Positions 15,001-17,056 of a stretch of DNA of 17,056 bases are shown piece by piece (within the stretch, counting starts at the first letter, position 1; each line of letters starts with the position of its first letter). A program made the position numbers. The DNA is from a virus (lineage: Duplodnaviria; Heunggongvirae; Uroviricota; Caudoviricetes): positions 1-17,056 of IMG/VR virus record IMGVR_UViG_2671180921_000025; one strand, 5' to 3'.

Positions 15001-17056
15001 GGTGAAGTTTAACTGAGAATCTACGGTTTATTTATGCGCGTCTTTTGTTTCTGGACGCAGATATTATTAGTGTTGTGGATGCTGATTAAATTTGGTCAGT
15101 GTTTTCGTTAAAGTCATATAAATACAGGGGCGTTCACGCCCCTTTTTGGTCTGTAGTTGGGTGAAGATCATCACTTTACTTTGCTCAAATAACTCAGCAC
15201 TTGCCGGTTTACCCTTAAGGCAATACCTACGTTCCATAAAAGAAGCATCAATTAGGATGCTCGTATACATTGTTATGTGCTTTAAATGTTAACTGATGGG
15301 GATGCTGAAATACCGGACATGTACTGCTTGCGTGTCCCTCACGCTTCGAAAATCGGGCGGTATGTCAGAATCGTGGTGAGTGTGAATATCGCTCTGTAAT
15401 TCTGAGTGTTTTTTCAACAGATGAATAAGCAGACATTGAACTCTGTTTATTTATCAGTATGATTTCTTTGGTTCCGAGGGAAGGGTCAATTATGTATCCG
15501 GGCATCTCATTCACACCCGAGGAACCAGCGCCGACTTAGCTCAGTAGGTAGAGCAACTGACTTGTAATCAGTAGGTCACCAGTTCGATTCCGGTAGTCGG
15601 CACCATATGCGGGCATCGTATAATGGCTATTACCTCAGCCTTCCAAGCTGATGATGCGGGTTCGATTCCCGCTGCCCGCTCCAGTTAGAGTCTTTCAGTC
15701 TGCGATGATGGGAAATCCCGGAGTGACTGAAAGACGTTTAAGTTATGAATGATCGCTTTTTTTTGCAAAATTGTTGTGCAGAAATACTAACTTTCGGGCA
15801 GGCGATCATTCATAAGCACTCTGCTTTTATTCCGATTAACTGTGGGTGGTTTGTTGGATAGAGTGCTTTCCTTACTGTATATATCGTTTCGCCCGCTTTT
15901 GCGGTTTTTTCTTTTCAAATCCCTTTCATTTCTCAGTGTAAAACTACGCCATCCGTTATTTGCGGAGGTGAGGCTATGAAATCCATGGACAAAATTTCAA
16001 CGAGCATTGCCTACGGCACCTCCGCAGGCAGTGCTGGCTACTGGTTTTTACAGTGGCTTGATCAGGTCAGTCCGTCACAGTGGGCTGCGATTGGTGTACT
16101 GGGGAGTCTGGTTCTGGGCTTCCTGACTTATCTGACAAATCTGTACTTCAAAATCAGAGAAGACAGAAGAAAGGCTGCGAGAGGTGAATAATGCCTCCAT
16201 CATTACGCAAGGCTGTTGCAGCTGCTATTGGTGGCGGGGCTATTGCCATAGCGTCTGTGCTCATCACTGGTCCGAGTGGTGACGATGGCCTGGAAGGTGT
16301 CAGCTACATACCATACGAAGATATCGTTGGCGTATGGACTGTATGTCACGGACACACCGGAAAAGACATCATTCCCGGTAAAACGTATACCGAAGCAGAA
16401 TGCAAAGCCCTCCTGAATAAAGACCTTGCCATGGTCGCCAGACAAATTAACCCGTACATCAAAGTCGATATACCGGAAACAACGCGCGGCGCTCTTTACT
16501 CGTTCGTTTACAACGTGGGCGCTGGCAATTTCAGAACATCGACGCTTCTTCGCAAAATAAACCAGGGCGATATCAAAGGCGCATGTGATCAGCTACGGCG
16601 CTGGACATACGCTGGCGGTAAGCAATGGAAAGGGCTGATGACTCGCCGTGAGATTGAGCGTGAAGTCTGTTTGTGGGGGCAACAATGAGCAGAGTAACCG
16701 CGATTATCTACGTTCTGGTCATCTGCCTCATCGTCTGCCTGTCATGGGCTGTTAATCATTACCGTGATAACGCCATCTCCTACAAAGAGCAGCGTGACAA
16801 AAACGCCAGAGAGTTGAAGCTGGCGAACGCCACCATCGCTGACATGCAGCAGCGTCAGCGTGATGTTGCTGTGCTCGATGCAAAGTACTCGAGAGAATTA
16901 GCCAATGCGAAAGCTGAAAATGAAACTCTGCGCGCTGATGTTGCCGCTGGTCGTCGTCGGTTGCACATCAAAGCAGTCTGTCAGTCAGTGCGTGAAGCCA
17001 CCACCGCCTCCGGCGTGGATAATGCAGTCTCCCCCCGACTGGCAGACACCGCTGAA

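Follow-up and report, generated by a model that had tools for sequence, protein, structure and literature searches.

Why does an Stx2f prophage carry two tRNA genes downstream of its toxin genes, when the ileZ/argN/argO-type tRNAs of other Stx phages lie upstream, and what might such genes contribute to the phage? The question was raised by an earlier note on a 17,056-nt stretch of viral DNA (hereafter the window), which placed a tRNA-Thr(UGU) and a tRNA-Gly(UCC) gene, 3 nt apart, between the stxB terminator and the holin gene. The pair and its unusual position are in themselves a rediscovery: both tRNAs are already annotated in the database record of Escherichia phage phi467 (LN997803) and are mentioned by Grande et al. 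2016 (PMC5189129), and Zuppi et al. 2020 (PMC7366253) stated that tRNA genes of Stx phages are always located between q and stx, with the exception of phi467, in which Thr and Gly are close to s. New here are the distribution of the module to which the tRNAs belong, the boundaries of the insertion that brought the toxin genes, and the promoter and leader of the tRNA pair.

Gene order and the tRNA pair

The window represents an Stx2f prophage. Its portion from 6909 to 17056 matches phi467, the Stx2f phage of HUS strain EF467, at 99.1%, and the identity rises to 100% over the 631 bp that surround the tRNAs. The window cannot be equated with phi467 throughout, because its left 6.9 kb contain a different early and immunity region; three complete Stx2f E. 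coli genomes match it from 1612 to 17056 at 99.4%. An integrase gene (1-1314) lies 14 kb from the tRNAs. The Q antiterminator gene (11428-12258, + strand) belongs to the lambda-Q family (Pfam PF03589, 175 bits) and precedes two overlapping reverse ORFs (12373-13304), stx2fA (13781-14740, +), stx2fB (14753-15016, +), a G+C-rich bidirectional terminator-like hairpin (15126-15143), the tRNA pair, the gene of the class II holin S (15976..16191, +; from the ORF list and the annotation of phi467 and relatives) and the lysozyme gene R (16191-16688). This order (Q, reverse ORFs, stx2fAB, tRNA-Thr, tRNA-Gly, S, R, Rz) is identical to that of phi467, and the lysis genes S, R and Rz as well as P27-type packaging genes come after the tRNAs (HNH and terminase genes in phi467). 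Both stx genes and both tRNA genes are located on the same strand as Q and S, and the published 'opposite orientation' of the stx region is not supported by the strands.

ARAGORN recovers exactly two tRNA genes from the 17-kb window, Thr(tgt) and Gly(tcc), both on the + strand. The tRNA-Thr(UGU) gene (15530..15605, +; 76 nt, CCA encoded) begins 514 nt 3' of stxB and equals E. coli thrU; it is separated by the spacer TAT (15606..15608, +) from the tRNA-Gly(UCC) gene (15609..15683, +; 75 nt, CCA encoded), which equals E. coli glyT. Both genes match the full Rfam model RF00005 (model positions 1-71 of 71), as expected of bacterial elongator tRNAs, with 73.8 bits (E 7.5e-15) for tRNA-Thr and 64.9 bits (E 2.2e-12) for tRNA-Gly. 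These scores are far above the gathering score of 29, so that the sub-threshold score which the earlier note had named as grounds for abandoning the genes was not encountered, and its description of a tandem pair downstream of stx, after the terminator-like hairpin and before the holin gene, proved accurate. No further tRNA was detected in 15000-16000 (ARAGORN; Rfam search, E up to 10), and none between Q and stxA (12259-13780; ARAGORN, Rfam). A candidate third gene, the 'tRNA-Lys' listed under the match in some relatives, turned out to be the gene 5' of Thr in four-tRNA arrays. Since the sequences of the pair equal those of functional host tRNAs, its mature products would work if made.

Relation to the host genes

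Alignment to host genes revealed 100% identity of the pair to chromosomal thrU (76 nt) and glyT (75 nt) in 5,421 of 5,426 complete E. coli genomes; the resemblance of the Gly gene to glyT, suspected earlier, is therefore exact, and extends to Thr and thrU. The median number of thrU/glyT loci is one per E. coli genome, and a prophage copy therefore doubles the gene dose. The identity between host and phage starts and stops at the mature tRNA ends, and the flanks display no homology. In the host locus, the order is coaA, thrU, 8 nt, tyrU, 116 nt, glyT, 6 nt, thrT and tuf; neither coaA, tyrU, thrT or tuf nor the 116-nt spacer is present in the window, in which the neighbours of the pair are stx2fB and the holin S gene. 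The pair consists of paralogous phage-borne copies and is not the chromosomal locus.

The proposed capture from a host cluster of the thrU-tyrU-glyT-thrT type stands only in part. A recent capture by the phage of the window did not take place, because the identity ends at the mature termini, tyrU and the 116-nt spacer are missing, and the fused pair is widespread, occurring in hundreds of non-stx prophages. An ancient origin of the pair from the thrU-tyrU-glyT operon is plausible, because the order of Thr and Gly is the same as in the host. Salmonella copies are equally identical to the pair of the window, so the donor species cannot be named.

A backbone module of lambdoid prophages

The pair together with the following 280 bp is found in 516 of the 5,426 complete E. 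coli genomes, stx2f in three of them. About 1,150 places with thrU/glyT sequences exist in E. coli beyond one per genome. The fused pair with its 3-nt spacer recurs, diverged copies included, in hundreds of non-stx lambdoid prophages, in which Q is followed by the tRNA array, approximately 290 bp and a class II holin; in every relative with gene annotation that we examined, the array is located between Q and the lysis genes. The arrays differ in composition: PhiR47_1 and EC12 possess CAU-Lys-Thr-Gly, JP538 and 683R6 Thr-Gly, and JLK-2012 Asn-Thr-Gly. A scan for the junction pattern yielded at least 120 viral contigs with the fused pair, and 124 real fused pairs, nearly all from viral contigs, served as the sample for array types and allele counts. 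They comprise 53 Thr-Gly, 40 CAU-Lys-Thr-Gly and 18 CAU-Arg-Thr-Gly arrays, with Asn-Thr-Gly also present. All arrays have compact spacers of 1-3 nt, and the spacer between Thr and Gly is TAT (as in the window) or TGT in all phage-borne pairs examined. To assess the taxonomic spread, we scanned GTDB species representatives for the 18-mer junction and obtained 51 matches; most of them are chance matches in high-GC genomes with flanks of only about 25-30% identity, and the real ones come exclusively from Escherichia, Shigella and Citrobacter.

From 15525 to 16178 the window shares 97-99% identity with non-stx prophages, and the homology starts at either 15525 or 15410. We define here, from these relatives, a lambdoid Thr-Gly module upstream of the holin gene by its fused spacer, its own promoter and leader, and a hairpin region of about 290 bp with a class II holin. 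The window possesses all of these features, with the holin S gene as the right-hand partner of the tRNAs. The pair, the approximately 290 bp and the holin gene are a standard backbone module in many E. coli lambdoid prophages, P27-like and other.

Candidate promoter and leader, and proposed late transcription

The candidate promoter of the pair is a sigma-70 promoter-like sequence, TTGAAC-16 nt-TATGAT (15436..15463, +), which the scan detected with 9 of 12 matches and which is conserved among relatives. All 26 distinct sequences upstream of two-tRNA arrays possess TTGnnn, a spacer of 16-17 nt (16 nt in 24 of them) and a -10-like hexamer (TAtnAT in 24), which ends 6-8 nt before a leader beginning with GGTTC. 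Likewise, the 20 distinct four-tRNA arrays all display a TTGCAA-like -35, a spacer of 16-18 nt and a TATTAT-like -10 hexamer, which ends 8-10 nt before the first tRNA. The promoter-like site persists where the surrounding sequence can no longer be aligned.

The leader (15470..15526, +) ends 3 nt before tRNA-Thr and has the potential to form a hairpin, GGUUCC-GA-GGG ... CCC-GA-GGAACC, in which 6 bp are followed by a tandem G-A/A-G internal loop and 3-4 bp. The RNAalifold consensus of 20 distinct leader homologues contains 10 pairs, four of them with changes on both sides; 94% of the cells are paired, and the covariation exceeds that of all 500 shuffles and all slid controls. The single-sequence fold of the leader is unremarkable (z -1.4), and a comparison with the Rfam families returned no match for it. 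Between tRNA-Gly and the holin gene, three long hairpins are predicted from the MFE fold (15685..15866, +), together with a weak terminator-like CCGC-TTTT-GCGG and T-run (approximately 15893-15915). The 292 nt after tRNA-Gly have an MFE of -90.6 kcal/mol (z -4.3), and none of 200 shuffles folds as well. This three-hairpin region is co-conserved with the tRNA pair in the 516 E. coli genomes and parts of it occur in phage HK639, where they lie among annotated terminators in the interval from Q to the lysis genes.

Directly after Q, a motif TTGATT-16 nt-TGTATT (12284-12311, +) is a candidate for the late promoter pR', and a hairpin read from the sequence (12352-12373, +), which the terminator scan had missed, is a candidate for the terminator tR'. 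Four prophages of the lambda-Q family share this layout, in which the first 110 nt or so after the Q stop contain a promoter-like motif and a strong terminator. Promoter and leader of the tRNAs reach 97% identity even in phages with Q proteins of just 39% identity, and the same layout of promoter, leader and array is combined with unrelated Q families (PF03589 versus PF06530/DUF1133). We considered whether the site at 15436-15463 might itself be a Q-dependent pR', which would leave stx2f outside the late operon; this is less likely in view of the pR'/tR'-like pair directly after Q, and is also disfavoured by the near constancy of promoter and leader across diverged or unrelated Q families. Because a pR'-like motif and terminator directly follow Q, and because promoter and leader co-occur with divergent Q proteins, we infer that the pair forms an autonomous unit nested in the late operon. 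Late read-through from the candidate pR' after Q would extend over stx2f and the tRNA pair.

Possible function of the pair

We propose that the two genes are functional phage-borne copies of host minor tRNAs which, as part of a backbone module, add to the tRNA supply, and we hold this to be probable, with moderate confidence. The compact unit, consisting of its own sigma-70 promoter, a 57-nt hairpin leader, Thr, 3 nt, Gly and three hairpins, with the stx2f cassette presumably inserted between the Q/pR' region and the tRNA-holin module, would be transcribed from its own promoter and, in lytic growth, additionally by Q-modified RNA polymerase reading through from pR'. The tRNA-processing enzymes of the host, with RNase P acting at the 5' ends, would mature the transcripts; two tRNAs of low abundance would be in greater supply, and phage genes rich in ACA and GGA, stx2f included, would be translated faster.

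The tRNA-Thr(UGU) encoded by thrU reads ACA and ACG, and the tRNA-Gly(UCC) encoded by glyT reads GGA and GGG. In a comparison of 49 phage CDS with 38 host CDS, the latter from a single 50-kb region that serves as the host baseline, ACA reaches 15.4 per 1000 in the phage and 5.5 in the host (odds ratio 2.8, p 2e-11), and GGA 14.4 and 5.0 (odds ratio 3.5, p 5e-16). Both codons are thus about three times commoner in phage genes than in host genes, an enrichment that the earlier note had suggested looking for; in stx2fAB, GGA makes up 44% of the Gly codons and ACA 28% of the Thr codons. The excess is consistent with an extra supply of two single-copy minor tRNAs, but it is not a specific match. 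With odds ratios of 5.2 and 10.4, ATA and AGA exceed ACA and GGA in enrichment, and stx2f is extreme in this respect (ATA 44% of Ile, AGA 39% of Arg), yet the phage possesses no tRNA for either ATA or AGA, and its tRNA set has therefore not been tailored to the toxin genes. The promoter of the pair is a candidate by consensus and conservation, and the mature phage products would be indistinguishable from the host tRNAs.

Alternatively, the pair might serve in counter-defence, with extra phage-made tRNA-Thr(UGU) replacing molecules that are cut by PARIS AriB or Gifsy-1 HepS, a role that we regard as unlikely. Prime targets of PARIS AriB include tRNA-Thr(UGU), along with Lys(UUU) and Asn(GUU) (PMC12409363), and HepS cleaves Thr tRNAs, UGU among them, as a secondary target (PMC13043305). 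The arrays of related prophages join such AriB/HepS target specificities with Thr(UGU). In addition, the anticodon arm of the array tRNA-Lys(UUU) appears quite unlike that of host lysT. U16C is present in 37 of the 124 phage-borne Thr copies, and the same change impaired AriB cleavage when put into tRNA-Lys (PMC12409363). On the other hand, the tRNA-Thr of the window is host-identical and retains U16 and the U36-A-A-U-C/A41 cleavage site, so it should be cut just as the host tRNA is, and a benefit could come from dosage alone. The Thr(UGU) encoded in the genome of T5Mos was not enough against PARIS (PMC12409363), and no nuclease targeting tRNA-Gly(UCC) is found in PMC12409363 or PMC13043305. 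Nor does U16C show, among the 124 Thr copies, the association with Lys-containing arrays that could be read as a sign of anti-PARIS selection. In tRNAs generally, positions 16 and 20 of the D-loop are free to vary. A more far-reaching version, according to which the Thr(UGU) arrays, with the pair of the window as their smallest form, are autonomous, Q-independent counter-defence units against AriB/HepS-type systems and the leader is a new regulatory or processing RNA element, appears to us somewhat more doubtful still. If counter-defence were the true function, the pair in an Stx2f lysogen would protect toxin and virion production under tRNA depletion.

It is also conceivable, though in our view improbable, that the pair has no present function and is simply carried along with the holin module, its host-identical state being maintained by occasional gene conversion. 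The module occurs on many backbones with different Q genes, as a hitch-hiking segment would, and the identity of 75-76 nt with the chromosome offers a substrate for conversion. Host-identical alleles also coexist with variants. However, the commonest Gly variant replaces the acceptor pair C6-G66 by U6-A66 with both sides changed in 51 of 54 cases, a clean compensatory acceptor-stem change that is not expected of a mere passenger. Selection for function is also suggested by the host-identical sequence of Thr in 70 and of Gly in 58 of the 124 phage-borne copies, and by the window itself, whose tRNA bodies match the host at 100% although its flanks depart by 2-3% from those of relatives. The retention of promoter hexamers, spacing and leader pairing where the neighbouring sequence no longer aligns, the compact 1-3-nt spacers kept in all arrays and the significant excess of ACA and GGA codons in phage genes likewise speak against a lack of function.

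Under the favoured reading, that of an added tRNA supply, the consequences may extend to the host. In about 10% of the complete E. coli genomes there is a prophage of this kind, and if the own promoter of the pair is active in lysogens, the carriers would have a doubled dose of two single-copy minor tRNAs. This could affect the expression of horizontally acquired genes rich in ACA and GGA, as well as the outcome of tRNA-targeting immunity.

Insertion of the stx2f cassette

The position of the tRNAs relative to stx is explained by a stx-free sister prophage, L009 of E. coli F719. BLAST aligns it with the window from 8259 to 13435 at 99.2% (the same helicase, toprim gene, Q and reverse ORF) and from 15525 to 16178 at 97.9%, and with nothing between. 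The segment that is absent from L009 (13436..15524, +) holds stx2fA, stx2fB, the hairpin at 15126-15143 and the promoter and leader of the tRNAs. In its place L009 has 270 bp with the array's own promoter, a tRNA(CAU) and a tRNA-Lys, and consequently four tRNAs (CAU, Lys, Thr, Gly) followed by the holin. The homology to JP538 begins at 15410, and the window from 15410 to 15524 corresponds to the promoter and leader of the two-tRNA type of JP538. The homology of the stx region to Stx2e phages covers 13891-15253 and ends well before the tRNAs. A second type of stx phage, in strain STEC308, repeats the placement of Thr-Gly after stx: its Q is followed by a reverse ORF, tRNA-Arg, stx2, intervening genes, Thr-Gly and holins.

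By comparison with L009, the stx2f cassette falls within a segment of about 2 kb (13436-15524). Judging from these alignments, the cassette entered between the Q/pR' region and an existing tRNA-lysis module, and nothing was inverted. Insertion upstream of this module is why the tRNAs lie downstream of stx; the tRNAs themselves did not move there. That stx2f was gained by these prophages rather than lost from the others is the more parsimonious reading of its presence in 3 genomes against 516 with the module. The tRNA pair consequently marks the phage lysis module and not DNA that came with the toxin genes, which corrects the placement of stx2f.

Our data contradict the view that the tRNAs are co-captured markers, which arrived with stx2f from a donor chromosome and now stand in an inverted version of the layout Q-tRNA-stx-S; we consider it very improbable. 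Co-capture was proposed for the tRNAs of Stx phages in general by Zuppi et al., and each Stx2 subtype tends to have its own tRNA set (PMC7366253). The host identity of the tRNAs would also fit such an origin. However, stxA, stxB and the tRNAs share the strand of Q and S, which leaves no room for an inversion, and the pair is contiguous with the holin module in 516 genomes, 513 of them without stx2f. Moreover, L009 carries Thr, Gly and holin without stx, and the homology to Stx2e cassettes stops at 15253. Finally, a prophage-host junction at the tRNAs, or an identity of the pair with the chromosomal thrU-glyT locus itself, has next to no probability. Integration into tRNA genes is common, and the sequences equal chromosomal ones, but the gene order refutes both possibilities: no coaA, tyrU, thrT or tuf neighbours the pair in the window, the genes on either side of it belong to the phage (on the left Q and stx, on the right S, R and Rz, followed in phi467 by HNH and terminase), and the integrase gene is at 1-1314. 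All this agrees with the earlier note, which had taken the tRNAs for phage-borne and not for the attachment site.

Comparison with known systems

Phage phi467 possesses the same tRNA feature in the same order, and the window differs from it in the left 6.9 kb. The classical phages of Stx1 and Stx2a/c/d/e (933W, P27 and others) likewise carry phage-borne rare-codon tRNAs within the late unit, in the interval from Q to S and beside stx. In contrast to the window, with its UGU and UCC anticodons, they have CAU and Arg(UCU/UCG), i.e. the ileZ-argN-argO type, and their tRNAs lie upstream of stx, between Q and stxA, whereas those of the window lie downstream. The Thr-Gly pair of the window is furthermore identical to host genes, unlike the classical set. 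The two sets are nevertheless joined in a single array, CAU-Arg-Thr-Gly, in some prophages.

The thrU-tyrU-glyT-thrT-tufB operon of E. coli encodes the same mature thrU and glyT in the same order. Compared to this operon, the window lacks tyrU, thrT, tufB and any shared flanks, its spacer is 3 nt instead of 8 nt plus tyrU plus 116 nt, and promoter and leader are different.

The arrays of virulent phages such as T4 and T5 are similarly tightly packed, with spacers of a few nt, and contain Thr(UGU) as well as Gly(UCC). The proposed roles of such arrays are codon supply and evasion of anticodon nucleases (PMC12409363). The window differs from them in that it has two genes only, which belong to a temperate lambdoid prophage and are host-identical copies rather than nuclease-resistant variants.

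Left arm and Q-proximal region

Sequence comparison identifies the window as a mosaic variant of the Stx2f phage already published. Its left 6.9 kb (1-6908), comprising an integrase gene (1-1314) and the early and immunity region, show no match to phage phi467 except for two short stretches, and non-stx prophages, e.g. those of F719 and KC-Dl-1, possess left arms related to that of the window.

The 115 nt that follow the Q stop codon contain a candidate late promoter, TTGATT-16-TGTATT, whose hexamers are separated by a spacer with a conserved CCGAATC, and a strong terminator (12284-12373). 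This layout after Q is common to four prophages of the lambda-Q family; the terminator hairpin itself was overlooked by the terminator scan. Two overlapping ORFs of 188 and 136 aa, in which no Pfam domain was found, follow on the minus strand (12373-13304) and are antisense to the presumed late transcript. Their counterpart in the stx-free relative, the F719 prophage, is a single ORF of 306 aa (L009 4115-5035), and the two ORFs of the window look like a frameshifted gene.

Flanks of the tRNA pair

Immediately 5' of tRNA-Thr lies a candidate sigma-70-like promoter together with a leader hairpin of 57 nt that contains a tandem G-A internal loop (15436-15526). Promoter and hairpin are common to all two-tRNA arrays examined, also where the flanks stop aligning; a search of this region against Rfam returned no family match. 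On the other side of the pair, between tRNA-Gly and the holin gene, three long and highly stable hairpins (15685-15866; z -4.3) are conserved together with the tRNAs, as is a weak terminator-like site (about 15893-15915). Part of this hairpin region is likewise present in phage HK639, for which several terminators are annotated in the interval.

Variation among related arrays and comparison with other phages

Comparison of tRNA sequences indicates that anticodon switching is found among related arrays: in the LT-IIb prophage (L006 1122-1197) a tRNA body of the Thr(UGU) type bears the Arg anticodon UCU, and in two viral contigs such a body bears the Lys anticodon UUU; the array tRNA-Lys(UUU) is closely related to the array tRNA-Arg(UCU). 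The D-loop varies as well. In a set of 124 fused Thr-Gly pairs, almost all of them from viral contigs, about 30% of the phage-borne copies of tRNA-Thr(UGU) have the change U16C, mostly paired with U20C. U16C is reported to impair cleavage of tRNA-Lys by PARIS AriB (PMC12409363); the tRNA-Thr(UGU) of the window possesses U16.

In a second stx phage type, represented by E. coli STEC308 (L183 1377-5854), stx2 is preceded by tRNA-Arg and followed by Thr-Gly. In this strain stxA2 and stxB2 are separated by an inserted IS2 element, and the interval from stx to the Thr-Gly tRNAs contains a methyltransferase pseudogene.

The stx2fAB genes (13781-15016) are extremely rich in ATA and AGA, which make up 44% of the Ile and 39% of the Arg codons, respectively. 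The window phage lacks CAU and Arg(UCU) tRNAs, whereas other Stx phages and sister prophages possess them, and its stx2f-holding segment occupies the place that the CAU and Lys tRNAs take in the sister prophage.
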